Positions 5,113-59,772 of a DNA stretch of 64,000 nucleotides are shown in pieces. Position 1 is the first letter of the stretch. Each line of letters starts with the position of its first letter. The notes beneath the pieces are model-generated. The model made no database searches and was not told the origin of the DNA. It saw only the letters and a program-made list of their open reading frames with translations. Origin of the DNA: Bigelowiella natans CCMP2755 (taxonomy: Eukaryota; Protista; Cercozoa); assembly GCA_000320545.1 (NCBI GenBank), contig ADNK01001860.1, forward strand, positions 124,001-188,000, given 5' to 3'. Position numbers and translations under genes: made by a program.

Positions 5113-5301
5113 TCGATTATTATCGATATTACTGCAGTAAATAAAGATTTCGTGACTCTTTTTTCACGGAGGTTGTACCAAGATGCAAAAACATAGCTGT
5201 TAAGCCAAGGATGCGAACAGAATAACTAACGAACTAACTTATGTACATGGAAGGCAGAAACATTTCTTACGTAGGAGTTTTTCCTCTGGATGATTGATTA
5301 A

Positions 5302-5746
5302 TAGGGTGCAATCCATACCTGTCAAAACTTGTAAAATTGGTAAAAACGGTTTTTCATTTTTGGGAAAAATGTTCCAAGTATGGAGTGCACCATTTGGGGT
5401 CACATCGTCAAAACGTGTAAAATTGGTGTGTCATTAGCGGTCACTGCCGGGTATCCCGGTGTGTTAACCGGGATTTCACATGGAAACACCGTCACTACCC
5501 GGTAGCGCCAAAATCGAGATATGGAAACGCCTTCGCGAAATAAATAAAAACGGCACAACCGGGATTTCACATGGAAACACCGTCACTACCCGGTCAGGTG
5601 ACCAATTTTGCGGGTGACCAATTTTACCAATTTTGCATCCAAAAAGTTTTGGTAATGCAATTTTTGTAAAAAATGACCGTTTTTCGACTTCAATTTACGT
5701 AAATTACCAATTTTGAACGGAAAAAAAAAGTATGGATTGCACCCTA
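5302..5746. mobile_element. Non-autonomous DNA transposon (MITE), 445 bp
   Basis: Perfect 17-bp terminal inverted repeats TAGGGTGCAATCCATAC (5302-5318) / GTATGGATTGCACCCTA (5730-5746); the outer TA may be a TA target-site duplication. Subterminal AAAATTGGT/ACCAATTTT repeats and an exact 38-bp internal direct repeat (5466-5503 / 5557-5594). No transposase ORF. Confidence 0.88.
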
Positions 5747-5912
5747 ATTATTCCCAGTTCCCTAGAGTATTCGAAGTTCGTTCGAAGTTACGCAGTTTGT
5801 CAGGACTCATCAACAGAAGAAAAGCAAGTTTTAAGCAGGAGCCACGTGGCACAGTGGAGATACAGACATCGGCTGCTAGCCCTGTGCCCCGCACACCAGC
5901 CGTGCAGCATAA

Positions 5913-7517
5913 TTGTGTCTGGCTGTGCTCACAGGCTCCGAAACTCGTAGAAATATACGAAAAGACATTTCTTTGACTGCAGTTGCATGGGCAGCCACAG
6001 TCATTTCTCTCACAGGATTCAACTACTTCTACTGTGGGGTGCATGAGGAAGAAACAGTCCCCGTGCGCACGATAACAACGAAAGATGGCCCGAAGGAGGG
6101 GGCGATCACTTCAGAAATTAGGTTTGTCTCCACCTTCAATGCATCGATTCTGCAATCTTCGAGTGAAATCTACGTGCGATGTATATATGTATATGCATGA
6201 TGATCACATTTCAAGATTTTGCCTGAGTTTTCGTCACAATCAGGGTTCATGTTCTAATGGTTTTAGATCTAACAATCAGCATTGAATTTGATCAGAATGT
6301 ACGGGGTAAAGCACACTCCACCTGCATTCCTCAACATTCAGCGTTGCTCCCATTCCTACTGCAATCAGACGACTGCTACTCTCAATGTTACTGCGTGTGA
6401 AAAAGCACTGGCTTCTCCAAAAAAATGCCCAGAGCACCTAAAAATTGCAATGCTTCAAGCAAAACAATTTAACCCGGTGGTGTACCTCTATGAGGCCGGA
6501 GGCAGCTGCAAGGCGTTTGCTTCGAAGCATTTTGTCGAATATGTGGATCTTGGGTTTCAGAAAATTGGCAATCTGTATTGTCTCATGATGCAAAACGCTA
6601 AGCCTGATAGCTATGTGAAAAGAAGTGGCTGGTTGTGGCAGTCCTCAATGATGCGATGGCTGGCAGTCGGAGACCCTGACATCAAATGGCCGCCGCGCTT
6701 CAATCTTCTTGATCATGACATGATGGCATGGACAGATTCAACAAGATATTTTGACAAATTTGGAGACGATGCCGAAATTGCAATCTGCTGCTACCATCCG
6801 GTGTGCAATGGGATCTACTCGCTTTTCACCCATCGTTCGGCTGCCGATCTCACTAGATATGTGATAGAGGGGCTTCAGTACTGGTATACTGACATACATG
6901 CATTGATTTCATACACATATGAAGGCACAAAACCTGAAGAGTTTGAATGTTGGGCAAACGAGCACACCAGGCCTCTTGGATTACAGTCTAATGGTTTATG
7001 CGCTGAGGACTGGATTCGCGCCCCACCTGAAGCGTCCTTGAATACCTCGTATCCAGTACATAATTCATGTCTTGAAATGCCAGATGGAAGGGTGTCAGAG
7101 TACATCATGGGTGATCGTGAAGGAATTTACGAACTCTGGAATGTGAGCAAGCCCGGAATCGATTGGAGAATAGACACATATCAAATGGGTAGGGAGAGGT
7201 GTCCTGCGCATAAACTATATTACAAGAAAGGTCACCTACATTACAAGCTTTTGGTTGGGAAGGGAGACAAGAGGAAGTGGAAAAAAGTTTCTAAGTCCCC
7301 GTTTCAACGGATCTTCGGCGCACATTTCGCGGCTGACTACAAAAAGCTGATGAAATATCACTTCCGACCTAACTTAATGTCCATCAATGAGACCGGCTGC
7401 AAAGAATGTTTGCAAGAAGATTGTGATTGCATGAACACAAAATGCGAATCATGCTTCACCAAGTGTTTAGACAAATGCCAAGTTTTGAGGGATTTCGTCG
7501 AAGCTATCGAGGAGTAA
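5913..7517 (+). CDS. Putative type II membrane glycosyltransferase-like protein (at least 2 exons)
   Basis: N-terminal hydrophobic segment (LTAVAWAATVISLTGFNYFYC), then a 411-codon ORF (6282-7517) containing a DxD-like motif FNLLDHDMM after MMRWLAV, and a Cys-rich C-terminus. The function is inferred. Confidence 0.55.
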
Positions 7518-9540
7518 CAACATCACTGAAACCGCATGAGATTGTGCACACGATGTGTCCGCTTTGTGCATCAAGGTGCATTCATGCAACAACAATGCAC
7601 GCTAGATGTAGCCGTTCTTGCATTGTGTGCACGCGCATGGGATTCGAATTTGAACCATTGTCAAATTTTGTTGGCGCTTGGTTGGTGGGATTTTTGGATG
7701 TCGATGCAGGGAGCATCTTCGAATCGCTTTGTGGACTGCTTCGTGCACACATCAGGTTCTGTCTGGAAATGGTTGGAAACGTGGTCGTGAGCACAGCCAT
7801 CTGCAACTTCGCTCATCAGATGAGTGTGGACTTTCATCACCTTGCTAGCTTGTTTCTTGCGATGGAATTTGACATTTTGGATTTGGTTCGGCTTCAAGGT
7901 TGTCCATTCTGGCTTTGCGAGGACGGTTTCACCAAGTTCCATGCAAAATTTTGTCGTCAACATCACAGATTTCGTCTGCCAAGTTTGCTTCGCTCATCGC
8001 ATCATTGCACAGCTCTGGAGCTCTATAGCTCGCGTTCAAGTCAGAGACACGCACACACTTGTGAGCATGCACTCGGTCTCTTGCATTGGAGTGCCCATGC
8101 TGCAAGTACATTTTCAAGTGCACACGTGGCGTTCATGACTCCACGTGCACCAAACAGTTTGTGCACACGTGTGCACCAGCATGCACCACAGCGGGCAGAA
8201 CGTTCACGTGAATGCATGTGCACTCAATGTCTCATGTCCAGACGTGTCAACAATGTGCACCACACACGAACCATGGTGCATGAGAAGCGAAAGAATTGAT
8301 GTTTTGATCACGCATGCATGCAATGTCAGGGACAGGCACACACTTGCAAAGTGCACTTTGTCTCTTGCTCAAATGATTGATTGACCAAATCGCTTTGCTT
8401 CTGCACGTGCTGATGCCATCACATCGCACCGCAGGCTGCCATGATCGAGTGCATTTTCCCAATGATCCCATCCATCACACGCATCTGTGTTGGGCATCAC
8501 GTTTCGTCTGAACGTGCACGTGAACAACGTGATTCATTGAAACGTGACACCAGCTGACAGCCATCAAGCGAAGCTAGCTCAAACCGAAGGTTTGGCGCTT
8601 CACACCCAACCAACCAGCAATGCACGCGGCAACACAAACCCGTGCCAAGGGGTGAAAGTGGTGACTTCGAGAACGCGCGTTGCCCAATGCATCCACACGT
8701 CAAAGAGAATGAATGGATCACACTTCACAGAAATCGTGAAAGAAAACTTCGATGTTTGCGTCTTGCACGATGAAGATGGACACAGCAATGTGATCATCGC
8801 TGAGCAAGCTCACATCACGACCCGAGCTTCCGCATGTCCACTAGCCATCACATCCTCTTCAACTCACTTCGCACAAGAGCTGCTCAATCTGATCACCATC
8901 GATCCAAGCAAGTTTGAACTCTGCTAAACCCTCCAACGCAGGGTCTCGAGTTGCTCAAGTTTGCAATCATCAGAGGTTTGGAAAAAAGCAAGATGTTGTT
9001 GGGTCACAAAAGAACGAAGATTCCAACAGGGTCTCGAGTTGCTCAAACTTGCAAACGTTGGAGATTGAAAAAAGACAAGGTGTTGTTGGGTTGCAAAACA
9101 GTGAGGATTCCAACAGGGTCTCGAGTTGCTCAAGTTTGCAAACGTTGGAGATCAAGAGAGGTGCACAAATTCTCAGTGCCATTCTCTCAAAATGTTTGTT
9201 TGCATTGGCACAACTAGACAATGGGAAGATCACACCAACTGCCTTTGGTGCAAAACAATTGCGAACATCATCAAGAGCAACAGCGTAACTTCAGGCTTTC
9301 TTTGAAAACAACGTGCCGCGGAGCAAAGGAACAAAGAAACCGGCAAACTTGAAGTGAAGCAGCGAGGATTCGAAGCTGCCACCACTTTGGCCAAAAGGGG
9401 AAAATTTTGTGATGTTGGCCGAGTCTAGCGTGTGCTGTGGCTGCTCCAATGATTAGCCTCATTGTGGGCGATGTAGCTAGCACGCTGACAGGCGCAGAAC
9501 CATGCAAAAATCACATCAATTTTGGCTCAAGTCAAGCAAA
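7518..9540. mobile_element. Degenerate, TpA-eroded repeat- or TE-like island, family unidentified
   Basis: About 11 TA in 7518-9420 (5 in CTAG), very high TG/CA content, His/Cys-rich pseudo-ORFs, and an 87-88-bp tandem repeat inside. No termini recognised, so TE origin is inferred. Confidence 0.55.
8933..9152 (+). repeat. Tandem repeat, 87-88-bp unit, about 2.5 copies
   Basis: CAGGGTCTCGAGTTGCTCAA recurs at 8939, 9027 and 9114, with alignable intervening sequence. Confidence 0.9.
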
Positions 9541-9638
9541 CCTTGCTCACACAGCATCGTAGCTGCTGTACATCACAGGTAACCGCTGCATGTAGGCACG
9601 CAACTGTTGATCGTGCATAGCATGATGGACAATACTGG

Positions 9639-11047
9639 CTACTTTTCATTGAAAATCAACCCTGCATTTGCGATACTATATTGAAAAGAGAGTCTCGCAC
9701 TACAAGGCGACTTAGAAACCAAGCACTCCATCGACTCCTTTCCGGGTTTATTCTGGAGCCGATATCTCACATTTACTGCATGCGCCCATGTTATTCCAAG
9801 AGCTGCAGTCTGAAGTAACAAATAATTTTACCTCAATTAATCTTACACACACAACAACAACATACACATACACATACAAACATATGCTCGAAGACAACGC
9901 GCCCACCAAATTTTCTCCGTCATCAGCAAGCCCCTTTTTCATGCCCCCAGACACTTGATTCGTGACCACAATAGGAATTCTGTAGGTCTCTCCCAAGTAC
10001 TTGAGCTGTTATAGAAATATCCTGGGGAGAGTGCCAAAGCAAGACAAATGTTAGTTGTGGAATTACTAAAACCTTTGAGGCGGCGATGCTGAGCATCATC
10101 TGACGCTCTGGAATGTGTTTCGAGTCGAAATCAGATCTGAAAGGAGAGGCCATGCTGTCTACAATAATCATTTTAATTTGCTTTTCGATAATAGTGGCGT
10201 CCAGTTGAGTAATTTGGTCCACTAGCTCATGTGCGTGAGAGCACTGGAAAACGTGGATGCTTTGTGTTAACTTCTTCAGTGCCTGATTAATATAAATTCA
10301 TTGGAAATACATTTGTAATCCATTCGAGTTAAACTTGCATGTGTGTGTGTGTGTGTGTGTGTGTTTGTATTAGAGCAAACCTTAACGTCATAAAATTTGG
10401 GGTATCTACTGCGAGCAATCTCAACTAGGCGAGAGGGGCTGAAAGAAGACTCGGTGTCAACGTAAATAACACCCCCACCTAAGCCTCCATACTCTATTGG
10501 AAGATACGCCATAGCTGACAAAGTGGTGCACCACTGGCTTTTTCCTACACCTGATCGAATGGAAGTAGTAAGTATACAATCCGTCAGAGAGGAAGGTTTC
10601 CTTTCACTGAAAAGACAAAAGTGACCTGCAGCGCCAACAACTTCGGTTATAATCCCTGGTTCGATGCGAACTTTGGAGCTCTCGAAAGTGAGGGAGGACA
10701 TTTCCGCGTCAAGCATGTTAAACGCAGTCCTTGGCTTCGGTGCCAACGTTGCATATACCTTCCGTAAAGCGGAGGCCAAATCGCCTGTAGATGTTCATAT
10801 CTGTTAGCGGCATTCTTTTCTGATTGAGCATTTCATCTGATTGACCAACTGAAATATCCAAGGCGTCTATAATGTCGAGATCCGGACGCTCTATTAGGTC
10901 CTGAACCGTTTTGATGTTCTTAGACTCGCACCTTTCACACAGACATCGTGTTTTACGTACATACATCGAAAGCGAGAATGCGAGACAGTGTTATTACAAG
11001 TCAGCAAAGTGGCCTGGTATTAATCTTTTCAGCCTTCGACCCGCCAT
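9639..11047 (-). CDS. RAD51B: DNA repair protein RAD51 paralog B, multi-exon
   Basis: Spliced N-terminus MAGRRLKRL...KTVQDL...VYATLAPKPRTAF is characteristic of RAD51B. Walker A ITEVVGAAG/VGKSQWC, GGLGGGVIYVDTESSFSPSRLVEIA, Walker B MIIVDSMAS, IPIVVTNQV, AALGITWAHAVNVR, KSP. Confidence 0.9.
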
Positions 11048-24126: not shown

Positions 24127-25157
24127 ATGGAAACTAAAACAGAGCAGAACCCAGTTGGACAAGCAAGGGCCACGAGAGAACGGAAGAATGCATCAAGGGA
24201 GGAGGAGATCGAAAAGATAAAGAAGCAGATGAGACGGAAGCGGAAGGAGATCAGGGGACGTGAAGTCCCTTCAATAACAACAATACAAAGACGAAGGAGC
24301 GACATCGAAACTGTCCGTCAGATGACGCCACAGAACGGCGTAACAACCTACCAAAATAACCAGAAAGGTTGGTCCTGTGTGCTCCGTATTGCTTCGAATC
24401 ATCCTAAGAAAATGTTTACCTCTTCAGGCCACTCTTCGACATCTCTCCGCGCCAGCTCATTCCCCACTCCTCCGCCGCATCCACTACTCTTGGCACACTT
24501 CAAGCGAGGGCAGAATGATTGCTCGTTAACCCCTGCGAACGTTAACGCACAGCTTCTCCTGGCCTGCGCCCAAGATCAAGTGGCAAAAGCTCGCTATCTC
24601 ATCAACGTAAAATTAAAACACAATTTATATAAGGAATTAAGGGTTGGAGTGGATGTAGTGATGTAACAATAGGAAGGTGAATTACATCTTCCATAGCGTA
24701 ATCGTTTCGATATCCAGGAGGCGCGCGCTGATGCAGGGGCTCGAGATAGAAGCGGTTGGACTCCTTTGGCAACAGCCGTGCAAAGCTGCAGCAGGCGAGT
24801 ATTACGTTACTTGCTTCTAGAAGCACGAGCCAACGTGAATGGAAGGTTTCCCGTCTACGATCCATCAACATCATCGTCGTCTTCATCATCTGACGGTAGT
24901 GGCAACGATGGTGGAGGAGGACGACTGAGGGTACACTTTTCTTGGACCGCCTTAATGTTGGCCGCACGCACGGGCGATGAAGCGTCGGTTCGGCTGCTGA
25001 TTGGAGAAGGGAAGGCAAACATACACTGTTATGACAGCGAGGGCTTCACGCCGGTAAGAGAGGGGGGGGGGCAGCGGGGGAACAGTAGCATGAATATCAG
25101 AACACTAAGTGTATTGGATACGTATTTTTCTTCACGTATTTTTACCTATTTTTTAAG

Positions 25158-25203
<46 letters not shown>

Positions 25204-26972
25204 TTTTCCTCTGTGACTTTCTATTTTCCCGTTTCGAAAACAACTTACTTCACCATTGAGAGCAAAAATCGACAGCATGAATACGCCCTTCTTAGCCCGT
25301 GTGTATGCTATCATTCCCTATCAGCTGATCATCGCATCCCAGCATGGCCGATCCGGTGTAATACGCGATCTACTTCTAGCTGGGTCTGGCATAGAGTCCG
25401 CTGATAAAGGAGGGCACACTGCATTTGCTCATGCGTGTATAAACCACGAATTCGGCGCTGCGCAAGCACTTATCAAGGCAAGGGCGTTGGTTGACTCAAG
25501 GGGGGGGGTAGTTGGAATGACAGCTCTATTGCGCGCCGTGCGGTTCGGTGAGGAAGAGGTGGCACGCTACCTTCTAGATGAAGCTAAGGCAAACGTGCTG
25601 CTCCCAGACCTAAATGGAACCTCACCGGTAGGCAAGCTGCTCTTGTAAAACTTCGTATCGTACCGTCCTGTCCGTTTCATATATGTTATTCCTATTGTTG
25701 TAACCGCATCCATCCATACCTCTTCCGCTTCAAGAACAAACTTTCCTGCTACTTTGCTTACTACCAACAATGACCATCATCATCATCATCATCATCATCA
25801 TCGTCATCGTAAAAACATCATCATGACACAGATGGCCGCAGCGGCGTATCTCGGTAAGGAGAAGCTAATTGAGCTTCTAAGGATCCACAAAGCCAACGTT
25901 GACCAGCAAGACAAGGACGGGCGAACGCCATTTATGCGCGCAACTGAGCAAGGGCACGTGAGCGCTCTAAGAACCCTGCTTAGTCTAAAGGCATCGCCTC
26001 TTTTATGTACAAACAGTGGCAGAAGCTCACTGATGGAGGCTAGCCGGGTAAGAGGAAGGACAGTTAACTACCTTTAATATTGTTACGTATTATGAGAAGT
26101 AGTAGTGCGTGCCATCACATCAGTCATTAAGCAGCAATGGGGAGTCTCCTCTCCTCTCCTCTCTTCTTCTTCCTAACTAACTTCTCACGATACGTATCCT
26201 TCACAGAGAGGCCATCTCTATTGCATGGACTTGCTATTGGTCACGTGTCGCGTCAACGTTAATCGCTGCGACGACGAGGGCCGCACAGCGTTAATGTATG
26301 CGGCGGACGAGGGAAAGACAGCTGCTGTTTGGATCCTACTTGACTTCAAAGCCCGTCTTGATGCTACCACATATAGTGGGAGTCACACGGTGATTGTAGC
26401 AGTGATAGTAGCTTTTGTGCGTGTTGTGCTCCAGGAAATCTGATTGTGTTTGGTGTGTATTGATGAATCTTCTCAGAAATGCATTGTGAATCTCCTCCTC
26501 TCTCCCTCACCTCCTCCTCCTCTCCCTCACATTTATGCTTTTCTAATGCTTTTCTTCCGTCTTACATCACCAGGCGCTAATGCTGGCCGCTAGGAAAGGG
26601 CACGCGGAGGTCAGTGACATTCGTGTGTTGTGCGTGCTGTCGTTGCGAGAGAAATAGAGGAATCCGGAGATATGGGGTGGCCAAGTAGTCTTCTCTCCGC
26701 TTTCAGATGGTTGCTGCTGCTATTGGTATCCTTATGCTAAAGCTGTTCTTGTGGTCACGACGAGCAGGTATCGTCGATCTTGCTCGAGAAACGTGCGAAT
26801 GCCAACGCTCGGTCACTGCAAGGGCACACAGCCCTCCACCTCGCATCTAAACAGGGAGAACTGAGTGTGGTGAAGCTGCTCATCAAAGACGGCCACGCCT
26901 ATTTGAACATCAAGACGAATCATGGGAGAACAGGTAGCAATGGTGGTGATTGATGGTGATGGTAGTGGGTTG

Positions 26973-27012
<40 letters not shown>

Positions 27013-28009
27013 ATTGCTGTTTCAAACCTTTCAAAGCTGTAATCCGAAGACATGGGTGCGCACACGAGGAAAAAATGAGAATTACCGTTGTTCTGCGGCA
27101 CGACTTCATTTTCTTTTTGTGTATTAGCTACTCTAACTTTTTGGTCTTCCTTCCATTCCACCTCCCTCCCCCTCAGCATTGATGTTTGCAGCGAAGCAAA
27201 GAAGAGAGGCTGTGGCAAGGTGAATGTCATCTCCTCTCTTAAGCAAGCTCAATCGTGCACAGCCTGCCCCCCCCCTTACCCTTTCTTTCACCAGGTTTCT
27301 GCTCGACGAAAAGGCGTCAGTAGACGTCATGGCAGACGCGAGTGGCAAAACAGCGCTCATGCATGCCGTGCAGAGCGGATCGTTCGGGATTGTAAGGATG
27401 TTGGCAACCGACTTCAAGGCCAAACTCAGCCTGTTTGATAACAAAGGCCGCTCCGCGTTGACATGTGCTCTTCATATCCTAGCTCAGTGCAGGGCTCGAA
27501 TCACTAGTAGTGGTGGCGGGGGCACAAGAGGGCAGCGGCGGCGACAGCTGCAGCAGCAGAATCTCCAATACGAGATGATAAGAATAGTCTTATTTCTGCT
27601 CGCACACCCGGATACAGTGTCAGGTACAAGCGTGGCCGATACGATTCTTATCAACAACTGCTGCTACTTGCTGCCCAACCGTCGCCGAAGACGTGAGGAG
27701 AGGCGAGAAGCTATCATGAACCTTCTGAAGCTGTTGCTGAGCAGCAGCATCGGAGGGCTCATCGTGGAGTATGATGACCAATGGTACATGCACGCCAAGC
27801 TCTTTGCAACGTATATGAAGCACAAGCAACATCAGCAGCAGCAGCAGCAGGGAGAGAAAGAGGAGGAGGAGGGGGAGAGAGCAGATGTTAGAAAAACGTC
27901 GTCGTCATCGTCATCTTCATCGTCATTCACAAACGTCCCAAGTGCCCCAGCAGCGACAGCAGACATTTCTTCTATTCCTACAAGTAGTTCCATGTACAGC
28001 ACGAATTGA
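24127..28009 (+). CDS. Ankyrin repeat protein, multi-exon
   Basis: Repeated ANK motifs: WTALMLAARTGDEASVRLLI, GHTAFAHAC, GMTALLRAVRFG, GRTPFMRATEQGH, GRTALMYAADEGK, GHTALHLASKQGE, GKTALMHAVQSG. Confidence 0.9.
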
Positions 28010-33268: not shown

Positions 33269-36129
33269 AAAGTAGATTATTAACAATGTAATAACCCATA
33301 ATGGCATCGACTGCTAAATCATTTCGCGAAAGTAATGGCTATGCAACCTTAAGATGGGCTACTTCACACACACACACACACACACACTCACACAAGTAAT
33401 GTGCCTCATCAGTATATCTCCATGATCATATGATCATGATCATCAACCACACTCATGACATTACTTGTTCCCCTTGTGGAAAGAGCCCTGCTTGATCGCA
33501 TCGTCAATACCGATCACGGCAGGCTTGGTCGCTGCACCGTAATTGACCGTCACTAGCCGTGCCGCCCTCTCGGCTATGTCAAAGCTCACAGCAACCACCA
33601 ACGCCACGTACTGCCCATAGCACAGCACCTCGCTCTCTGCGAAGATCTGCTCATCTCCAGGGAAAGGGCCAGCGTTGTTTGAACCCCCCTTTTTAGCATT
33701 GCATCTTCCATCAATAATGTATATTATGAGCAATGTGATGACAAAGAAATACTACCAAGTCCTTGACATCCTTCGCTGTCACCACCCTGACGACTCCTGG
33801 GAGTGCTGCTGCGGCAGTGATATCGATGCTCGATATCGTCGCTCGCGCTTTGGTCGACGTCACAGGGCACGCAAATAGGCAGCGGTTTGGATTGGACAAG
33901 TCTCCGGTGTACCTGAAGGGAGTTGGCAACCAGTCGGGTCAGTTAGCAACCTTTAAGCAGAAAACAACGAGATGCTTTTTTGGTCCCGCATGCCCGCGTT
34001 AGACAAAAATGATCGCTGTGTTCGCCTTGGATTTCGGTAACTAAATTCAAGATTGTACGTTACTATTTCGTAGCGGGGCTGTTTTGTAACTGCGCTTGTA
34101 ATAATTGAGTTGCCATTATTCTCCCCCTTTCCCTCTCTCTCTCTCTCTCTCTTTGTCGCGTGAGTTTCCCCTTCTCCCCCCCCCCCCCCCCCCCTCTTCT
34201 GACTTGGCTTCTCCAGAGGCTTGTATTTTTGCTGCAAGCTTCGTGACGGGAGCGTTAATAGGCGCGAGGCTGGGGTCTCCTCCTGCGTAGGTCTGAGAGG
34301 CTGAAACATTGATGATGATGATGATAATGATCAGGGAAATGATGCACAGACTGAAGTAAAGGTGGTGTACGGCGGTAGTGGCCGGAGGTTGGATATTAAA
34401 CAAATAAAGACAAAATTAGTGTAATATGTGTACGTTAGGAGGAAAACATTGATTGATTGAGACATCATTATCGACGACGACCACTACTCACCTGTGGAAG
34501 TTGGGCGTCGATAATGCACGGCTGCTGACCGTAACTCGGGCGGTAGAGTAGCAATCCCAGGGACTGCGAAGTGCGCTACAGCAGCCAAGAAGCTCTTGTA
34601 GAAAGTAGTAAGAGCTAAAGAGTGCCTGTACTCCTCGGGAGCCTCGAGCTTGGGAGAGGTCGCATCATCATCGTCGTCTCCATCTGCAGCTTCCACGCTG
34701 CTTTTCTTCTTCTCCTTCTCTTCTTTGATCTCCCTGCTCCTGCGGAGATTATAAGCCATCACCAAAGGAAAAAACATACGTGTTGCTTCGCATTGCATAC
34801 AGCTTTATTCATATGTTAAAAATATAGTGTAAAATTTGTTGTCGTCATAATCTCCAAGAACGCTCTTCGTTGCATGTCAATAGATTTCCCAAAACAGCAG
34901 CAGCAGGAGATGGCGTGACTGATCCACAAACACGTGGCAAGGCAATGGGTGCACAAAAGCGGCGGCAGCAGCAGCAGCAAGAGCACCTGTAAAGGTTGTG
35001 TCTGGCAATTTGTTTCAGCTCATCAGCCAGGCTCTGTACACCGATCTTCAAGCCTGCGGCCGTCAAGGGCTGTTTGGCCAAGGCAGCGGTTGTTTTTGGT
35101 GCAAAGAAAGGGCCGTTCTGCATAGCGCCAATTGCCATCCTGACCTCTTGAATCACACCATCAGTGGCTTTGAAGGAAAACGCTGCGTTGACGTACGCGT
35201 GAGTATTGACATGTCGGCCCATCACCTGGCGTGTGGGGATATTATCGACAAATTAATGATGTCCATGAAAAACTGATGAGGACTTTCACTCGAACCCTAC
35301 TACTCTTCTCTCTATCTCTCCCATCCATCCCTCTTTTTGCGTGTGTGTAGGAGTGGGTGGGTGGGGAGGGAGAAAGGGAGGAGAGAAAGAAAGAGAGAGA
35401 GGGAGAGAGCCTACCTTGTGAGAGTCGAAGAAACCGTAGTCGTCCTTAAGTGGAATATCGACATTTACGACAAAAGGCGCATAGTCTTCTGGGGAAATGC
35501 TGAGATAATCACGCACAGCCATTGTCGCAGGGGCTGTTTGGCCGCTCTGGATGACACTAAGCGTTGCGCCTGCGCTCAGTAAGAGAAGGATCACGTCTGA
35601 AGGAAAATCGGGGTGCGAGCGAGCCATTTCGAGGTTCCCTGAGGGTTTGAACACGGAGAGGAGTAAGGGTGGGAAGGAGGAGTGATGACTGTTAATTAAT
35701 GTGTCAAGTAATCATAACTCTGATAGTCCTACTACACGCATGTTCAAGCAGCATTTTTATTACCTGCCCAGCTACCAGCGTTCCTGACTTGGTGGTTGGC
35801 AACGAGGCGCAGGTGCCTACCGATGGCCCCCCCTCTCTGCGTATTACTGCCCTCGAGCGCTTTGATCAAGTTTGCCAAACTTACGCCGGCGCCCACCCTT
35901 ACCCCATCTGCTGTACTTTCGACTGTAATAGACAGAGCCGTGAATTAAAACTACCATATTTACTACAACACACTCACGCACCCACGCCCATCCTTTCCTT
36001 CGGATGATCAAAAGAATGAGCGGGACGCTACTTTCAGATCGTTTCTCTACTCTACTGCGACGTTCTCTTCTTACCACTCTACGACTACAACAACAATTAC
36101 AACAACAACAACAACTACTACTACTGCTG

Positions 36130-36163
<34 letters not shown>

Positions 36164-36784
36164 TACCAGCAAGAAGTTCCTTGAGATTTCCAATATGTAC
36201 GAATACATCAGGATGGTCATTGGGATGAGAATTGTAGTACTTGACGACTCCAATCGACGTGTTACCGCTCACGAGCCGCACGCGTGCCTCCGCCTTTTGC
36301 GCGCTCTGATATGCGGCCACGGCGTCTGATAGGGACTCTGCCTCAACCCAGGTGGGTGTAGCAGCAGATGTGCTAGCTTTCCCTCCCCCCATCTCTGCGG
36401 TGGAGGAAACTACTGCGCCGTGACCGAGATTATGAACGCGTGATACAGTCCCTGCAAGGGTTATTGTATCGTCGTCGTTCTCATCTTCCCCAATCTCTCT
36501 CAGGAGTCCATCCTCTGCTTCCGCCTTCTTTCTCTGCTGCTGCTTTTTCTTATCGCCCTTTCCCTCGAGGAGCCTCGCCTTCTCTTCGTTGGCGAAAGAG
36601 TGGGCGGCCTCGAGGATGGGCCGGTACCCAGTACAACGGCAGATGTTCCCTGAAAACGCGTCCTCGGTGTCGTCCAGAGTAGGCTTCTCGCCCGTGCGCT
36701 GCAGCATGCCGTACCTACGCATCGAAGGAGATGATGCTAGCTATTGTATTTTTGGTACTTGTTGTGGATCCCCCCCCCCCCCCC

Positions 36785-42051: not shown

Positions 42052-42410
42052 AAAGTAACCTGTACCTTATTTGTATGTATTAGGGTGTACATATATAATA
42101 GACATTTAAAGTAACATCATATATAGGGTATATATGGTATTAGACAAAGTAATATCGTATATAGGATATATCTGGTATTACGTGTCTGTAATACATAATT
42201 GCCTATCCTCGCTTATCATAAGACGGATGTAAATATCAATTAAATTTGCTCAATAGTCATCCTTATGTCGTAGCTGTGCAATGCAGCGGCTACCAAGCGA
42301 TCATGGAAGAAGTGCACTGGCATGGTGGCCACGTGAGGCACAATGCTGTGCGAGACGGATGTAATGAAGTGATTAAATGCTGTGCAGATCTAGATAGGCA
42401 TGCATATATC

Positions 42411-42700: not shown

Positions 42701-43925
42701 CTACTCGTTGGCATGTAAGTTTACCATGGACAGCCTTGCTTTCTGCGCTTCTACGAGTATGTCCGTTAAAGATTCTCGTCTATTTCTTCGCGTTTTTTTA
42801 CCTACAGCTTTCCCGTATTTTGTAGCGGATGGCGAGTTAAGATCTTCTGATTTTTCGTCTTCCTCATCATCATATCTAGCCAACTTTCTTCCTGTGTACG
42901 CATTTTGAACTCGGAATTGTACTGTAAATATTTCTTGCACACGATGGACCATGTGCATTATGTCGCAGGCTTGACTAAAATCGCGAACATGGATGCCTTC
43001 GATTTGGGTTACCTTCCAACCTTTACCGACACCGTATTCATGAGCATCTGAATTCTTTGATATTTTAGTGACTCTCAGGGACTCGTTTATTTCAAAGCCA
43101 GCAGATAGAGAATGAAATGTCAACACTTTTTCATTCTTCTCATGCAAACCAGTTGGATTAAGCATTCCAACTTTGCATATTCCATTTTCTGCTAGAGCAC
43201 TAGACATGATCTCCCTGGCCTCCCACTTCGAAAGTACGAGAATATCGTTGATTTCCTCGATAATCCAACCCAATCTCACGCCTGAATGGTGCGCAGGGCC
43301 ATTTTTTGCAAGACTTCCGACCGTAAGATCGTCTGCTATTTCGAACCCATCTTCTTTCCTCACATGAAATTCAATCTCTTCAAACTGCTTTACTTTTCTA
43401 TTCACGGTTGGAATAAATTCTCTATGTAGGCAAGACGGCGCGAAAAATAGCATTTCTATAACTACTATTATTACGAATCGCAAGGTTGCATCAAGCGCAA
43501 ACGAAAGAAAAACTGTTACTAAGTAATTCTTCATACAGTCGGGTTGAGTAAATGACTGATAAACAACAGCACCTCCGAAAATCAAAATGAAAAATGCCAT
43601 GATGCATAAAACTATAACATCCCAGAAACTGTAGCTCATATTCTTCAGATCTGGGTGGTCCAGCGGAAGAATAGCGTCCCCGCAGCAGCCTTCCTCACTT
43701 GATACACCAGACTCTGTGACGAATCTTTTCGCAAAATCGGATCCCATATTCAAATGTCTGGTCACGCCTCCCTCGTTGAGTTCACCGGCTGCATTCTTCT
43801 CTATCGCCTCATATTTTTCGTCTTCATAGTCCGCATCAGGAGGTGGTACCTGAGTAATAATCGTATCAAAATTGGTGTGCACGAAAGATAACATCATTTA
43901 TGTTGTGTGAGTGAGTAGATTTGGG

Positions 43926-43971
<46 letters not shown>

Positions 43972-44620
43972 CTCGCCGAGACAGATGATCATGAGAAGTT
44001 GACGAGCATTTCCAATGTCTGGTATCCCTTTCCTGATCTTTACATTTATTGCAAAGATAACCTCATTTGTCTGAACGCTAAAAAATGGTCAATTGCATCA
44101 CCTGGAGCTCTGCGCGTATCGGTCTTCGCATGAAGCGAGAGAAAAGAGATCGGAGGGGATATACTATAATCATGGTCAGATATGCCGTAGAGTATCCTGA
44201 CCATATATCATCTCAAATATATTTAAAAGAGACATGTGGAGATAGAAACCTGTCACTATGTCCTGATAACAGAGCATCAGGGCTTGCACAGCCATCGTGG
44301 CGAAGATAGTAATCATCAGTATCATCTGTCGTTTTACTGAAACAAGGAAATCTCCTCTATGATGGAACATTATTCCAATCCTGCAAAGCAAAAGGTATAT
44401 GTCTCTGATTTTGAATAGATTTACATTATGGGCAAATGACCAGCTGTGGGTTTGGCGTAGACTCCAGCAGAGCCGATTTCCAAAACTTCTCCAAGATCGC
44501 GATTTATACCGCAACTGAAACATCCGGTTTGATTCCCTCCAAAATGCAAGTTCGTTATCATTCTTGGCATGAATAGAGTCCAGAATCTTAAGATTATTGG
44601 ATTGGGGAGTTAAGATGTGC
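42701..44620 (-). CDS. Membrane protein with polycystin-1/REJ-like TM region and two C-terminal PDZ-like domains, possibly 5'-truncated
   Basis: Two PDZ-like segments (GFEIADDLTVGSLAKNGPAHHSGVRLGWIIEEIND; GFEINESLRVTKISKNSDAHEYGVGKGWKVTQIEG), several TM helices, and upstream exons with LRQTHSW..FHHRGDFLVSVKRQMILMITIFATMAVQAL. Confidence 0.62.
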
Positions 44621-44919
44621 ATTGAATTGATGTTGCTAATTTACCCCAGCGAGGCATAACCCGAAGGCAGCGAAGCCTATGACAGCGAGGACGAAAATAT
44701 TCACGATGAGCATTGTCGCACGTCTTGATAAGCTTAACTTTGGATATATTCTTGCTCGGGATGATACCCCCCCCCCACAACAGCTCTATCTGGATTCGGG
44801 ATCTCCTTTCTTTCACAGATGATCTCTTGGAGGTAAGAATCGCTGTCAGTTTTGGAATGCGTTTCGGTTGTCCTTTCCATTTCCCGAATGGTTGATTTTG
44901 CGTTGTCGCATGCCGTAAA

Positions 44920-45850
44920 CCCCTTCCGTTTTGATCCCTTCGACTGGATTGCAACCCTTTTGGAAATGTGTTGTTCATCACGTCTGTTCAATTGTTCATT
45001 GCATTGGAATCTTCAATCTTTGTGCAGTCGATCATCAAGTTGCTTTCTTTCTTTCTTTCAGTGTGAGGTCTGTCTTGGTGCCTGGCTCTCCAGAATGCAA
45101 CACACTCGTTGCCTCCATCTCTCTCACAACCAGAGTCCTGTTGGCTAGTTGGATGAGCCCTCAGGTGACTTGCTAGCTTCTAGAGCTTGGACAAGGATCA
45201 CAGCGTCGACAGACGAGTCGTCAGGATGGATGTACTGCGACTTCCCTCTTGACTCTCAGTTGTGCTGCCTACTTGCTGCCATGGACGCCAATTTTGCAAC
45301 GTGCTCTGCTCGTTTTCACACCAGAGCTAGCAGAGAGCTAGGAGTCCTCGTTGTTTTCAGCTCGAGGCACTGCGCGTTTGCTTCTTTCCAGCTTCGCAAG
45401 TGTCATGCAACACTTTGGAAACGTGGTCGATCAGTGAACTTTCTTTCTTTCTTTCTTTGATGCGAAGTTCAATGATGTTCACTGTTCAATGTTCTAGCTT
45501 CTTTCATCACATCGATCCCTTCTTGCCTTGTGTGTGCGACGACATGCATGGTTTGCAGGAGGCATGCAAGGAAGGGCACTGAGCTCGGACGCTGAGACAC
45601 TGCTGAGACCTGACGGACACTAGCTAGCTGGGATTGACGCATGTGCACTCCATTCCGATCCGTTCGGTGCTTGCAAGCGTGTCGCAAACAAACGCACGCG
45701 TGCATTGCACAATTTCATCTAGTCATGGGAACGCCGCACGCACGCACACCATGCACGTGACAGTCCTGACAGCCACAGCGAAAACACGTGAAGATCGAGC
45801 CTACGACACGTGTGATTTTTTCATCGACGCATCTAGGCATGCTAGCATGC
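44920..45850. mobile_element. Degenerate TpA-eroded repeat- or TE-like island
   Basis: About 14 TA in ~930 bp, 11 of them in CTAG. Shares motifs (TCGAGGCACTGCG...TGCAACACTTTGrAAA) with 59033-59190. Confidence 0.55.
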
Positions 45851-46051
45851 TTGCATGCAACCGGTACTAGGGTAGCATGAAAATGCGCGCAACATTGGGA
45901 TGACTATTGAAAAGATTTAATCACTTCATTACATCTCAGAACGTTCATGACCAATTGAATTTTTAAGAACACACAATGATGTAAAGGCTGAGCGTAATGA
46001 TCATCCAGAAAACCCGATTGTTCGATCAGGCCATATCCCAAATGTTGACAG

Positions 46052-49000
46052 TTAACGATCAACCTCACATGTAGGATTATTGGTTTTCAGCTCTTCAATG
46101 ACGTCGTCTGATACATCGGCGCACCAGAAAACGTCAAGGTGGGTTAATTTAGGGCATGATTTGGCGATCTCACTTATAGATCGATCTGTCACCTTTTTGC
46201 AAGCGTAAACATTAAGGCGGCAAAGATTTTTGCACCTTGATAGGAGAGTAATGGAGTTGTCAGTGATCTTGTCACAGCAAGGAACCATCAATTCTTCCAG
46301 CTCCGTGCAAGTCTGTGATATTTGTGACACAGATGCATCCGTAATCTGATCACACACTGCCAGATTTAGCTTTCTGAGCTGCGGACAGCCTTTTGCAACT
46401 TTGATGATCGATTCATCTGTCAACTTCTCGCACACAGAGAGATTCAACACTTGCACAAGGGGGCAATTTGCCCCGATTTGACCAATACTCTGATCTGTAA
46501 GTCTTTTGCAGTGCCCAAGATTCAAGTTTAGAAGATTTTTGCAATGGCTAGCCAACACTCCGATACTTTGATCCGTAATGTAGTCGCAAAAGCAAAGGTT
46601 GATTCTTTCCAATTTTGGACACTTCCGAGCGAGTTGCGATATTGACACCCCGGTCACTTTCTTGCAGTTTCTGATGTTGAACTCAACGAGGCTGGTGCAA
46701 CCTTCCGCGACGGCCTGGATGGCGTAGTCAGTCAAGTTAGCACACTCTTCCAAAATGAGTGTCTGGAGACCCGAGCACGCAGCAAGACCGCTCACACCAG
46801 CATCGGTGACCTTATGGCAGTGGCTTACATTAAGAGACCGCAATGCCTTGCACTCAGCTGAGATTGCTTTCAAACTCTCGTCAGTAACCCCATTGCATTT
46901 CGAAAGATTCAGATCACGCAGGCTACGCAATTTTCCGAGAAGGGCGCCTGATGTGTCAGTGAATATGTTTCCAGAGAGGCTTAGAGATTCTAATCCAGGG
47001 ATTGCAGCTAGTGCTGGAGCGAGGAGCTTCAGCTCTACGTCCCCCATATTGCAGTTAGTGATGCTGAGAGTCTCAAGTGCATGCACCTTGAGGCACTCCG
47101 CAATCGCGCTCACTTCCAACACATTCAAGTTAGTTGAAGCCAAGTCAATGTGCTTCACACTGGTGTTGTGATGGAGTAAGGAGAACAGCCACACGACGTC
47201 TTGGGAAGTAGCGCGTGAGTACTCTGCCCTGTCCAGCTCGTTGGCGCGTAGTTTCAGCACTGGGATCTTCTGTTTGTACTCCAAGGTTTCGAATTGGGTA
47301 TGTTCGGGCAGCTTGATGCAGGCCTCAGCCACCATCCGGATGTGTTTGTCCGTCATCTGGCACCCGTGAAGATTTAACGATTGAAGTGGAGATTCGCTGG
47401 AGATCACAGCGGCAATTTGCTTGGCGTCATTGTCTGTTAGAGGTCCTATCTTATCTGTACGGTATAGCTGCCAAGGGGTAGATTCATACAGAGAATTCCA
47501 CTTCTCGCGTCCTAAAGACTCTAGGAGGCCGTTGGCTATTCGGCAGGCTTCGATCCAGAACTCTGGTAGCTGTAGCGCGGCGAGAAAGTTGGACAACGCA
47601 ACGCTTAGCTCCACTTGCTTGAAGCCCTCTACTTCCCGAATTAGACTCTTGACCAACTTATCTTCCAGCGCCACCCCCTCTAATCGCCTAGTCGTTTTTG
47701 TCCAAGCCACCAAGGTCTTTTCAGCGCTCTTTACATCGTTGATGGTCGTCTTGTAGAGCAGCTCATGCATTATCTTCCACTGACGCTTGTCCTTGCACGT
47801 AGCGAGGAAGGAGCACAGTAGAATCGTCAGGTTGCGCCCTACCGTGTCTACGGCCTCCACAAATGTTACCAGGGATTGGATGTGCTTAAACGACGATGCC
47901 CCCCCTAGATTTCTGTAGTCGTTGGGACACGACTCGTTCTGAACGCGGGCCTTCCAAGTGCCGAGGATCTCCTTGACAATGTTCACTACGTTGTCGGTGT
48001 CCTTGGCTTCGTACGCCTTCTGACAGGCAAGGAAAAAGGACTGATCGGCTTTTTCCCAGTTGGCGGTCTTGCCCTTTTTTTCGTTCTCTCTTGCTGCTAT
48101 CCTGAGCCGAGTAATGCGGGCTTCTCGCTGGCAGTCTTTGTTCAGAGGATCCGACTGGAGCGTGCGATTGAAGCTGCTAATAGCGAGTGACAACAGCCTA
48201 TCCCCCCCCACTCCGTGGTCTTCATATGCCTCCTGCGACAGGACTTTGGCGTTAGCGTAGTCGATAACGCTCATGTGCTTGACGCGGACAGTGAGAGCGC
48301 GTAAATCCACACTGACAAATTCGTAACCAGGGCCGCTGCGCTCTAGCGATTCCAGACACGCTGGCGTGAGTCGTACGCCTGTGGTGGCAATGACATATTT
48401 GACGATGCTTACGATATCATGTCTCACGGCGCCGAACAGGTTGTGCTGCTCCTCAATTGAGAGGGCCTTCGGGCCGAATCGTAGCTTGAGCTCGAACGGC
48501 AACTCCGTGCCCCAGAAGTTATGCGTCTGGTCGGTCTGGTGAGCACGGGTGACGAGGTTGAGGAAGTCCACGACCATCGCTCGAGATTCGTGGTCGGAAG
48601 GCTGTGTGTTTTCATGGCGAGCGAGCTCCATCCTCATCTCCCTTCTCAGCACGTTCTTCAAAGTCCTTTCACACATCGTGACCAGAAGTGTGCGTCTAGC
48701 CTGATCGGCGCTCGTGTCCTTCCCTGCTCAGTCAAACCACACATTCATCACAACCGATCCTCTCGTCGTCGTTTTGTGTGTGTTGAGTTGTGTTATACAC
48801 GGAGGATGCCAAAGTACTTCACTTTGAACGAATACTGAATATGGTTTATCTTCTGTGGCACTGTCGCTTTACTGTTGACTCTCCGCTTGTTCTCTCGTGT
48901 AATTTTTAATATGTGGGAAAGGGATTTAAGGTGGTTGCGGAGAGAAATACGTGTATATATCATGTCGTAGCAGCAGCAGCAGTAGGAGTGACGGTCGCGA

Positions 49001-54111: not shown

Positions 54112-54751
54112 GATGGGATATTTTCTTCCTTTTACGGTAGAAAAACATGTCTAAAAAGTATAGATATTGTCCGCATCTTCTAAATACCAGATCTGAAGAT
54201 ATGCGAAATTAATTTAAGGAAGGATATCGTAAGATTTGAATTCTCATGATTACCAAAATTGATGTTTTCGGCCTGATATTCAGACTATTTACATGTGCGC
54301 AGCCGGAAACAGATTTTTCGTCTCCAACGATGTCGTAAGGAGAAAATGTTAGGAAAATATCTACCGGAATTAATAATCAGAACGAAAAACTAACAACAAT
54401 TGCAATAATGATGACATAGAGTCTACATGTTTTTTATTTCACCTGGGCATTTACTCGAGATTATTGCCGTTGGAAACCCAGCTGACGATGCGTAGGAAAC
54501 AGAGCTGAAAAATAATAAATGGATGGATAATTATTCCTGCGACAACATATTTTTATTGTCGTCACAACAAAGCACAGAGTTTCGTTCCCTCATCAACATC
54601 GTCGCGGAACTGTACGGACTCAGGTTAGCTGTCTGGAGAGAGAGGCATTCTGTATTCAGAAGCTTGCCATTTCTTGCCGTGACATGTAGAGATTGATTGT
54701 GAGACTTCAGGAAATTTGTCTTATGTGCCTATTTCGTCGTGAAAGCTGATT

Positions 54752-55342
54752 ATGTCATATACCAAAGAAACCGTAATGGAGGATCAAGAAGAGGTGTTCG
54801 AAGTTGAAAGAATCGAGCACATAAGAACGCGCAAAGGACAGAAAGAATATCTGATCAAATGGAAAGGCTACGGCGAATCTGAAAATTCTTGGGAACCTGC
54901 ATCAAGTTTCGAAGAGGGTTTGGATAGTGCCCTAGCGAAATATTTGCAGAGGCGAGAATCTGAACAAAGACGCAAATCTCGTTCTTCTTACTCGAGGAAA
55001 GGTCGAAATACACCCTCGAGGAAAAAGATAGCATCCACGAAAAAGGCATCAGCAAGCAGCACAAAGAGAAAGAAAACTGTTCCGGCCATAGGCACACGAC
55101 GATCTGCACGCCTCAGCAAAAGGCAAAAAAATGCAATAGAGGATGTCGACAATGAAAGAGTGAGGGCGGGAATAAGGGAATTAAAGGCTGCCCTTGATGA
55201 GGCATATGAAGAAGGAGAAGAGGGAAGCAAAACTCCCGAACATGACGCAACAACTGAGGACACTGAAAACACTGAGAAAGCGGATGTTCCAGTATCAAAT
55301 TTCGGATGGGCATCTATTTCGAGTATTTGTCCAATATCGTGA
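54752..55342 (+). CDS. Chromodomain protein with basic hinge, acidic stretch and C-terminal CaaX-like motif
   Basis: EEVFEVERIEHIRTRKGQKEYLIKWKGYGESENSWEP with aromatic cage F/W/Y intact; K/R-rich NLS-like region; ends CPIS-stop. No chromoshadow domain visible. Confidence 0.9.
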   Translation: MSYTKETVMEDQEEVFEVERIEHIRTRKGQKEYLIKWKGYGESENSWEPASSFEEGLDSALAKYLQRRESEQRRKSRSSYSRKGRNTPSRKKIASTKKASASSTKRKKTVPAIGTRRSARLSKRQKNAIEDVDNERVRAGIRELKAALDEAYEEGEEGSKTPEHDATTEDTENTEKADVPVSNFGWASISSICPIS

Positions 55343-55520: not shown

Positions 55521-56001
55521 GTAAGACGGATGTAATCAAATTAATCAAATTTGTTCAATGGCCATCCTCATATAGCTGTGCAATGCAGATATCACATCGT
55601 CGTGTTGAATCTGTTGGTCTCCGCTATGCTAGCTATGCATGTCTATCATTATGATGTGTTTAATGCAATCAAATGCATGTTGTTTCGGTCTTGAATGGCG
55701 CGCATTTCGCGCAGCAGTGCGTGTTTCCTTCTCATCGCAAGTCAATCTTTTCGTTTCGTCGTCGCGCATCACTATGGCAGTGGGCTGATTATATTAAGCA
55801 GCGTTGATGTGTGGTGTGTGCAATGCTAGCTAGAATGCGCGCTCCGCGCCTGGGCATACTTGGTAGCTATCTAGCTAAACATACACATATATCCTGTAGC
55901 AGAAACCAACAGATGCAACATTAGCGCTGTAGCCGCTGCATTGCACAGCTACATCAGGATGACCATTGAAAAATTTAATTCTTCATTACATTCGTCTCAC
56001 A
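55521..56001. mobile_element. Putative old MITE formed by two inverted copies of the ~80-bp dispersed repeat
   Basis: 55521-55588 is the imperfect reverse complement of ~55936-56001. No clear target-site duplication. Confidence 0.55.
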
Positions 56002-57757: not shown

Positions 57758-58059
57758 GGCTGGAGTTGGGCGACGATAATATCTCCCGAGAAAAAGGTTG
57801 AAACAATAATATCGTCGGGTATTTTCATCATGCGACAAAACTTTATTTCAATCAGGATAGGAATTGCATACTAGACGCTAGTCTTAACGCGCTGTCCTAT
57901 TATTTTAAGATGGCGGAAAAAAAGATATCACGGGATATAATCGTTGTCGCACACAGGATTTATCCTATGAATGTGGAATTGCCTCGGTTAGCTTGTGATC
58001 TTCTTTCTGGTGCTCGAATCCTCTTCGTGTCTTCTGGAAACGTCGATCATCAGTGGTTC

Positions 58060-59018
58060 CAAGGGGGATTCACTCCCCCGGGTTTTGGTCCGTGTCATGC
58101 TCGGAATCCAATCCAAACTTCTTCCGAAGCACCACAGAAGACTTCTGGACGTGTGAGAAGGTCCAGAATTGTCCAGAAAGGGGTGCAAAAAAGTGGATTT
58201 TCAAGGAAAAAAATCGAGGGCAAAAACTTTGGGTGCCGCGGAAAGGGTCCACTTTGCGTGTTGGCTCAAAAAAACATGCTCAGAGGCCGTGTCAACAGCA
58301 ACTCCATCACCTCCAGAAGTTCCACTCCAAAGTTCGCAAAATTGAACGTTTCCGCGCCAAAAAGGTGCTTTTTTTTTGTGGTTTTGACTTTGGTGAGTTT
58401 TCGATGTGTGGCTCCTAGCGGCCTGCACGGTGCCGATGCGGCAATCAATGAAGCTGGATGTGATGCGCGACGCGCAGCTCCAGAGCTGCTTGGGATTGGA
58501 CGCACGAGCAAGACGTGTGGGCACGATGGCGCACACTGGCACACTTTGTGCGTGCGCCCAGCGCGCGCGCGCACGCAAGCACTCACAGCTTCCCACTCTG
58601 ATGCACACTTGTCACTTGATCATCAAATTGAAGCTAGACACGTCGCGACGTCGCGCACGACTGGATGATCGACGCTGCGCACGTGATCAGTCACACACGC
58701 TGGTGCACACATCGATGGGAAGGGCGGGAATGATGAACAATGAATGATGAACAAAGCATTGATCAAATCTGCATGCGCCAGGGAAGTGGGTTGGGCACAT
58801 CTGAGACATCCCAGTGACTCGATGCCAAGAGTTCCGCCAATGTGCATCTTGGGCAATTTCACTGGACACTTTGTGGATGGTTTTTGAAGAAAACATTGAG
58901 GAATTTGAACAAAATTTGCATTTTTTTGGGTGAAATCGAAAAAATTTTCCCGGCTGACGCCGGGGCAAAACCGCCGAGCATGATGCGGACCAAAACCCGG
59001 GGGAGTGAAACCCCCTTG
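58060..59018. mobile_element. Non-autonomous P-element-like DNA transposon (959 bp), TpA-eroded
   Basis: 45-bp TIRs CAAGGGGG(A/T)TTCACTCCCCCGGGTTTTGGTCCG(TG/CA)TCATGCTCGG (58060-58104 / 58974-59018) and an exact 7-bp TSD GTGGTTC (58053-58059 / 59019-59025). CAAGG...CCTTG ends with a 7-bp TSD fit the P superfamily. Confidence 0.9.
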
Positions 59019-59032
59019 GTGGTTCAAAGTTA

Positions 59033-59157
59033 GTTCGAGGCACTGCGTTTCGCACACTGCAAATCTCTTGTTGCAACATTTTGGAAGTGCAGTTTGTCAT
59101 CATTGTTCATTGTGCATTGCTCTTTGTTCGAGGCACTGCGTTTCGCACACTGCAAAT
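59033..59157 (+). repeat. 32-bp direct repeat GTTCGAGGCACTGCGTTTCGCACACTGCAAAT x2
   Basis: Copies at 59033-59064 and 59126-59157. Confidence 0.85.
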
Positions 59158-59772
59158 GCCAGAATGTCTTGCAACACTTTGAAAATGCGCGATCTAGCGA
59201 TGCAGTTCATCATCATTGTTCATTCTAGCATTGTTCAGTTTCTTTCTTTTTCTATGGAACGTTGAATCTTGAATCTCCCCCACATCTACTTGCTCAAGCT
59301 AGCAAGCTAGCAAGCTACACATGCAAGCAAGTTCCACCAGTGTCTGTGGCGAATGGTTCCACTCCATTGCAAGTGGATGCATGCATGGATGGGTACATTT
59401 ACGCACGGACTGCTACGTAGTGATTTTTGGTGCACATATGCATGAGTACACATAGCCGCGCCACTGGTGCATACGGAGGAATTGTAGTCACATGCTAATA
59501 CATGAGAAAAGTAATTTAATAATGTGCCACGAACGTTATTTTGGTGGCGAAATAGTACTACATAGCCATGGACGCTGGGTACACACATGCGCATAATTGC
59601 ATCTTAGCTTTCAGCGGAAATATGCCACCGTCGTCCAATGAATTATGATTTGTCATGAAATATCCTCTTTTCCCCCCCCTTCCGATTCCGAATGGCAGAA
59701 GGCAATGGTGGATCAGAGATGCAACTTACAATCCTCTCCTTCCTTCGATCGACGTGCACATCTTATGCATAT

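Follow-up and report, generated by a model that had tools for sequence, protein, structure and literature searches.

Near-complete loss of TpA from a 2-kb island of Bigelowiella natans nuclear DNA, probably by TpA hypermutation of an old insert

What has removed nearly every TA dinucleotide from some 2 kb of Bigelowiella natans nuclear DNA lying between two host genes? The stretch analysed (the window, 64 kb in length) contains 3,482 TA, or 54 per kb. Island 1 (7518..9540; 2,023 bp) has retained 15, seven of these in CTAG, where 135 are expected from its own base composition and 115 from the background rate (Poisson p 6e-32); the remaining 2,023-nt windows possess at least 52, with a median of 114. 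The initial annotation had estimated about 11 TA in 1.9 kb, which agrees with our counts of 11 in 7518-9425 and 15 in the whole island. Its TA-free section from ~8110 to ~8570 was also found, there being no TA across 8107-8575, the longest such gap of the whole window. The relative abundances (rho) in island 1 are 0.11 for TA, 1.76 for CA, 1.62 for TG and 0.78 for CG, compared to 0.77, 1.18, 1.16 and 0.89, respectively, in the background.

A two-state model (HMM) recognizes TA-poor segments in the window at about 7376-9425/9568, 44.8-45.9 kb and 58.0-59.4 kb, the last two corresponding to two further islands (~44917-45864 and 57990-59330). The neighbours of island 1 are located where they had been placed previously: the TAA of the upstream ORF occupies 7515-7517, immediately before the island, and the stop codon of the downstream gene is found at 9639-9641, about 100 bp beyond its end. 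The latter gene (3′ exons at 9639..10990, minus strand) had been called RAD51B, and its best PDB matches are to RAD51 homolog 2. The "sharp targeting boundaries" that were claimed hold approximately at best. The edges fade rather than being base-sharp, with HMM limits of 7376 on the left and 9425-9568 on the right; the 3′ reads of the RAD51B-like gene extend to ~9475, inside the edge of the island; and the changes in a database variant (P0001, discussed below) lie within the coding end of the other neighbour.

A process with this outcome has been measured in this species. Mettrop et al. (bioRxiv 10.64898/2026.01.13.699255) describe hypermutation of TpA to TpG or CpA in B. natans mutation-accumulation lines: two integrated viral regions accumulated 231 mutations, of which 230 were A->G or T->C, every one of these on TpA. 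According to the preprint, B. natans possesses 124 TpA-poor clusters, the TpA-poor CDSs are enriched in transposon domains, and an ADAT2-like protein is named as candidate enzyme. Our literature search on this TpA hypermutation returned nothing beyond this work. Under its cut-offs, the values obtained here (0.09/1.89 for the first 1-kb window of island 1, which passes, 0.10/1.80, and 0.14/1.51 for the second 1-kb window, which is borderline against 1.52) are overall those of TpA-poor sequence; its three-window cluster rule needs a longer stretch than the 1-2 kb of the islands in our window. Island 1 resembles the published regions in species, in the loss of TpA with gain of CpA and TpG, and in the involvement of both strands. 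It differs in that the process is nearly complete, on islands of 1-2 kb, and in that the island frames, searched as they stand, gave no credible viral match.

We consider it probable (roughly 85%) that an old insert, probably derived from a repeat or transposon, was exposed to the TpA hypermutation known in B. natans until hardly any TA was left and CA and TG were in excess. On either DNA strand, the A of TpA would be deaminated to inosine and then be copied as G, so that TG and CA should arise about equally often; the candidate enzyme is the ADAT2-like protein proposed in the preprint. The likeliest target is a domain of silent chromatin, ~1 kb or longer, and targeting would go by such domains and not by duplication. 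CAG/CTG is likely subject to a second, slower loss through C->T, by which some TAG would be re-created.

Comparison of island 1 with its other genomic copies bears on the direction of change. Among 39 listed differences in 7500-8700 there are five adjacent CA-versus-TG swaps, at 7705, 7714, 7804, 7821 and 7825, where 0.2-0.4 are expected by chance (computed on the 34 differences in 7570-7860, leaving out five further right). The swaps go either way, the window having TG where the copy has CA or the reverse, which is what independent loss of a common TA predicts; we infer this direction, no unmutated copy having been found. Since identical sites ended up as CA in one copy and TG in another, at least part of the mutation postdates the duplication of gene plus island. 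The 87-bp repeats of the island contain one CA/TG swap, and also two of the type AC/GT, which speak against a pure TpA reading. About six A/G or AC/GT differences fall at potential former ApT (7704, 7713, 7824, 7522 and the repeats at 8978-9151); ApT has a rho of 0.92 against 1.07 in the background, possibly a weak second motif. The conversion of TA to CA/TG, as originally proposed, is thus supported by composition, by the reciprocal differences between copies and by the published B. natans mutation-accumulation spectrum.

The upstream host gene (5955..7517, plus strand, start approximate) contains an intron at 6120-6293 and corresponds to B. natans model Bigna1/77057. It encodes a protein of about 462 amino acids with a hydrophobic N-terminus and a Cys-rich C-terminus, for which no Pfam family was found, nor any homologue outside its own cluster (P0001 and two B. 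natans models). Although it was duplicated along with island 1, its paralogue (model P0004) being ~90% identical, the gene keeps a normal TA content (rho 0.57-0.60). By eye, the database protein of Bigna1/77057 (P0003; 6294-8927) consists of the upstream ORF spliced onto two frames of the island, with exon 1 omitted. This is likely a false model that splices past the real stop owing to lost stop codons: the loss of TAA and TAG leaves long frames open in the island, which explains why the model runs into it.

In the window, this gene has its final 59 codons and its stop (7338..7517, plus strand) intact; in P0001 they are altered, with five residue differences and a read-through of the stop. All six of these end differences fit a single TpA->TpG/CpA change, compared to only 1/30 further upstream; the changes are read from the codons of the window, the variant having been compared as protein. 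The front part of P0001 matches the paralogue, so that recombination between the two, or a chimeric assembly, may account for the variant. DNA runs X1 and X8 contain just two copies at the end of the gene, and the wild run X15 has an intact stop, so P0001 likely derives from another strain. A spread of hypermutation into the end of a host gene is therefore possible, judging from the protein sequence of this variant. Three variants further upstream (6851, 6864 and 6889, within 6205-6889) are common to X8 and X15 and absent in X1; they seemingly occur in both paralogues, possibly through gene conversion or a strain difference.

The left part of island 1 (7518..8630) exists, with the upstream gene, in one or more diverged copies elsewhere in the genome. 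Between ~5700 and ~7900 there are two sets of contigs of similar depth, one identical to the window and the other ~90% alike, and the latter runs across the stop of the upstream gene into the island. Segments 7787-7827 and about 8566-8606 occur in several genomic copies, with up to five other contigs matching at position 7822. To the right, the X1 and X8 contigs have no differences from the window over 8568-10300, where the island part offers the mutator few remaining targets, and their depth is taken as that of a single copy; copy number was judged from separate contigs, read depth not being equal to it. The section 8790-9540 is single-copy yet stripped of TA. Copy number, which had been suggested as a check on a mobile insertion, accordingly gives a divided answer, the left part being dispersed and the right half not. 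Transcription is likewise uneven. RNA depth, from one run read at ~6% and excluding runs X16-X20 (share under 0.2), is ~12 at the end of the upstream gene, mostly from paralogue-type reads, 0.2-1.9 over 7594-8448 and no more than 0.11 over 8449-9474; on the end of RAD51B, from 9475, it is 3-4. One MMETSP transcript (P0005) spans 7664-7963. The RNA coverage proposed as a second check therefore shows a weakly transcribed left half and next to no signal at 8449-9474. Taken together, the contigs, RNA depth and transcript suggest that island 1 is partly repeated, and mostly but not fully silent.

Transposon-type ends are clear in the other two islands. Island 2 (57990..59330, limits set by eye) encloses a 961-bp element (58059-59019), bounded by terminal inverted repeats of 46 bp and flanked on each side by TGGTT. 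Two of the three mismatches between the inverted repeats amount to a TG/CA swap. This element sits in an older repeat, also present at 45351-45432, and the loss of TA continues beyond both of its ends. Island 3 (44917..45864) adjoins a degenerate MITE-type end and has a repeat in common with island 2; eleven of its 14 remaining TA are CTAG. Its left edge comes close to, or overlaps, the region where the minus-strand frame 44613-44987 starts.

Other elements of the window have escaped. A 455-bp MITE (5297-5751) just upstream of the host gene, with inverted ends of 22 bp and direct repeats of 38 bp inside, retains its TA (rho 0.61), as does the complete 478-bp MITE at 55522-55999 (rho 0.85). The latter belongs to a dispersed family with a common end motif (1513-1528, 42219-42366, 45889-45935, 55522-55999 and 61859-61874), this motif having seven matches in the window compared to 0.55 expected. 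The element at 560-1528 looks partly hit (TA rho 0.55, 7/35 TA in CTAG). Host genes recognized by Pfam are an ankyrin gene (24697-28006, plus strand), a xanthine dehydrogenase-like gene (34848-36740, minus), a PDZ gene (42704-43897, minus), an LRR gene (46055-48727, minus) and a chromodomain gene (54743-55339, plus). Duplication alone is neither needed nor enough to attract the mutator, because the duplicated gene and the two MITEs of less than 500 bp keep their TA while a single-copy stretch is stripped. Element age may be an alternative to chromatin-domain targeting as the explanation for the spared MITEs.

What island 1 was before it decayed is less evident. A minus-strand frame without Tyr, which had been reported at 7661-7966, extends over 7664-7993 and encodes 110 amino acids with no Tyr, seven His and four Cys; it is likely a coding remnant, and transcript P0005 carries it at 99%. 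A Tyr-free frame of 128 residues (8541..8927, plus strand) is possibly another. Within the single-copy part, an 87-bp (29-codon) unit is tandemly repeated ~2.5 times at 8939..9151 (plus strand); the unit is LRR-like by eye only, and no family match to this region was found in Pfam, by word-based protein search or in PDB. The frames of island 1, searched as they stand, gave nothing credible in Pfam (best, F-box-like, E 0.03), PHROGs, a word-based protein search, PDB, the ESM Atlas (best 0.76 in one search, none in another) or viral contigs, where one matching stretch was counted without a locus. A phmmer search against 1.84 billion proteins returned the own-species transcript and two proteins, an SpaA adhesin and a low-complexity ORF, which were rejected as repeat-rich. 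Rfam (best E 0.09) and metagenome contigs likewise provided no credible match to the island. No transposase or viral hallmark gene was matched by these frames, and the island has no convincing terminal repeats or target-site duplication, although original repeats could have been erased by decay. Nor could it be aligned with MITE ends from other parts of the window. Neither was an empty site detected, since no joint skipping the island exists in 3/3 DNA runs, which possibly represent the same or close strains. Of the features of a DNA transposon or endogenous virus, dispersed copies are present, in the left part only. The "inactivated mobile or foreign insertion" of the initial annotation is accordingly plausible: the repeated left half and broken frames agree with it, and the proposed searches for transposon or virus proteins and for empty sites turned up nothing in its favour. 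Because neither an unmutated source copy nor a homologue was found, we infer both this origin and the ancestral TA state.

The TA that survive are not a random remainder. The three islands, a sample of 4.3 kb, retain 39, of which 24 lie in CTAG, 12 in TAG on one strand only and three in neither, where the background density would give 10.7, 79 and 149, respectively. The limits of island 3 were drawn from non-TAG sites, and limits drawn from all TA leave 9/13 in CTAG. In islands 1 and 2, CTAG makes up 13/23 survivors compared to the 25% expected under no 3′ preference (p 0.001), and a two-strand model in which TAG is 9.6-fold better preserved provides a close fit to them. These data suggest that the mutator acts roughly ten times less often on an A that precedes G. 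The islands are also depleted in CAG/CTG, at 0.69 overall and 0.63-0.75 individually, compared to 0.87-1.06 in 13 pieces of background. In forward simulations on host background, sparing of TAG alone gave the right mix of survivors with CAG/CTG at 0.96 +/- 0.05; CAG/CTG decay alone reproduced the 0.63 with few CTAG; and the two combined came closest, the 24 CTAG being reached by no model. Tentatively, then, the mutator spares TAG and a second process, C->T, operates beside it, although the source elements may have been CTAG-rich from the start. Decay at Dcm-like CCWGG sites was considered and does not fit, most surviving CTAGs being in CTAGC/GCTAG. No usable B. natans methylome was found in the literature, and the terms CTAG, TAG, trinucleotide and context are not mentioned in the main text of the preprint (10.64898/2026.01.13.699255).

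Several other explanations deserve consideration. The surviving CTAGs could be new TAs arising from later C->T loss at CAG/CTG, the mutator having no 3′ preference for its A. Depletion of CAG/CTG in all three islands, and the simulated value of 0.63, are in keeping with this, but such regeneration predicts ~3 CTAG to 9 half sites where 24 to 12 are observed, fails to account for the CTAG share in islands 1 and 2, and needs either CTAG-rich sources or a decay of CCAG/CTGG much faster than that of other CAG/CTG; we regard it as unlikely. Decay of methylated CG in an element that was TA-poor at the outset might produce the excess of CA and TG, and CG ancestors could yield the same swaps between copies. 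There are ~5 single CG-versus-CA/TG differences between copies, and the rho of CG is slightly low. With CG hardly depleted, however, complete swaps ought to be much less frequent than single changes; in fact the two are equally common. CG decay cannot remove TA, the loss of which is seen directly in P0001, and the same pattern recurs in three separate islands, all of which makes this explanation highly improbable.

Pairing of duplicated DNA might instead set off a RIP-like process with an inverted spectrum. All three islands contain repeated sequence, and the escape of MITEs under 500 bp is reminiscent of that of short repeats under RIP; the spared duplicate of the upstream gene, the stripped single-copy section 8790-9540 and the single-copy state of the main hypermutated viral region in 10.64898/2026.01.13.699255 render such a trigger quite improbable. 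A further proposal concerns origin only and is compatible with TpA hypermutation: island 1 could be the remains of a host gene, or of a duplicated fragment of one (LRR-like, for instance), that fell silent and was then hit by the same mutator, with nothing foreign inserted. The single-copy right half and the failure to find end repeats, target duplication, an empty site or a viral or transposase match are all consistent with this, as are the many TpA-depleted CDSs with host-like domains in the preprint. Against it stand the multiple copies of parts of the left half and the clear transposon-type ends in the two other islands of the window. We find a host origin somewhat doubtful and, on the strength of the repeated left part and of those ends, favour decayed mobile DNA.

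Fungal RIP, which depends on RID/DIM-2 in the sexual cycle, consists of C->T transitions and creates TpA. The process in B. natans resembles RIP: it is a regional and strand-symmetric hypermutation, it acts on one dinucleotide in DNA rich in repeats, and it may leak into neighbouring sequence. It is unlike RIP in that TpA is removed (rho 0.11) and duplication alone does not predict targeting. Among adenosine deaminases, ADAR favours UAG. The A->G chemistry and the preference for a 5′ U/T are common to TadA/ADAT, ADAR and the present case (PMC12027372), and TadA8.20 edits UAG best, on RNA (PMC12027372). In contrast, TAG is the surviving context in B. natans, and the changes are found on both DNA strands.

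Island 1 is a further instance of a process already published for B. natans, and not a discovery in itself. What our analysis adds to the main text of the preprint is the survival of CTAG with loss of CAG/CTG, evidence against a duplication trigger, and a possible spread into a host gene, with hits in its end. A fuller proposal, which we offer as speculative and more apt to fail than to hold, is that TA is attacked by a DNA adenine deaminase coupled to silencing, which, unlike ADAR or TadA, recognizes TA before A, C or T and leaves TAG alone, beside C->T decay at CAG/CTG. This mutator would mark transposon-derived domains of at least ~1 kb, irrespective of their origin or copy number, and would spread into neighbouring host genes, removing stop and Tyr codons in some strains. 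If true, the CAG/CTG decay beside the mutator would mean non-CG methylation in a rhizarian. The island is useful as an end-state sample of hypermutation, and its surviving CTAGs provide a fingerprint for tracing the mutator enzyme. The sparing of the duplicate gene speaks against a trigger of the RIP type, and a lost stop of the P0001 type suggests that the process has a cost to host genes.
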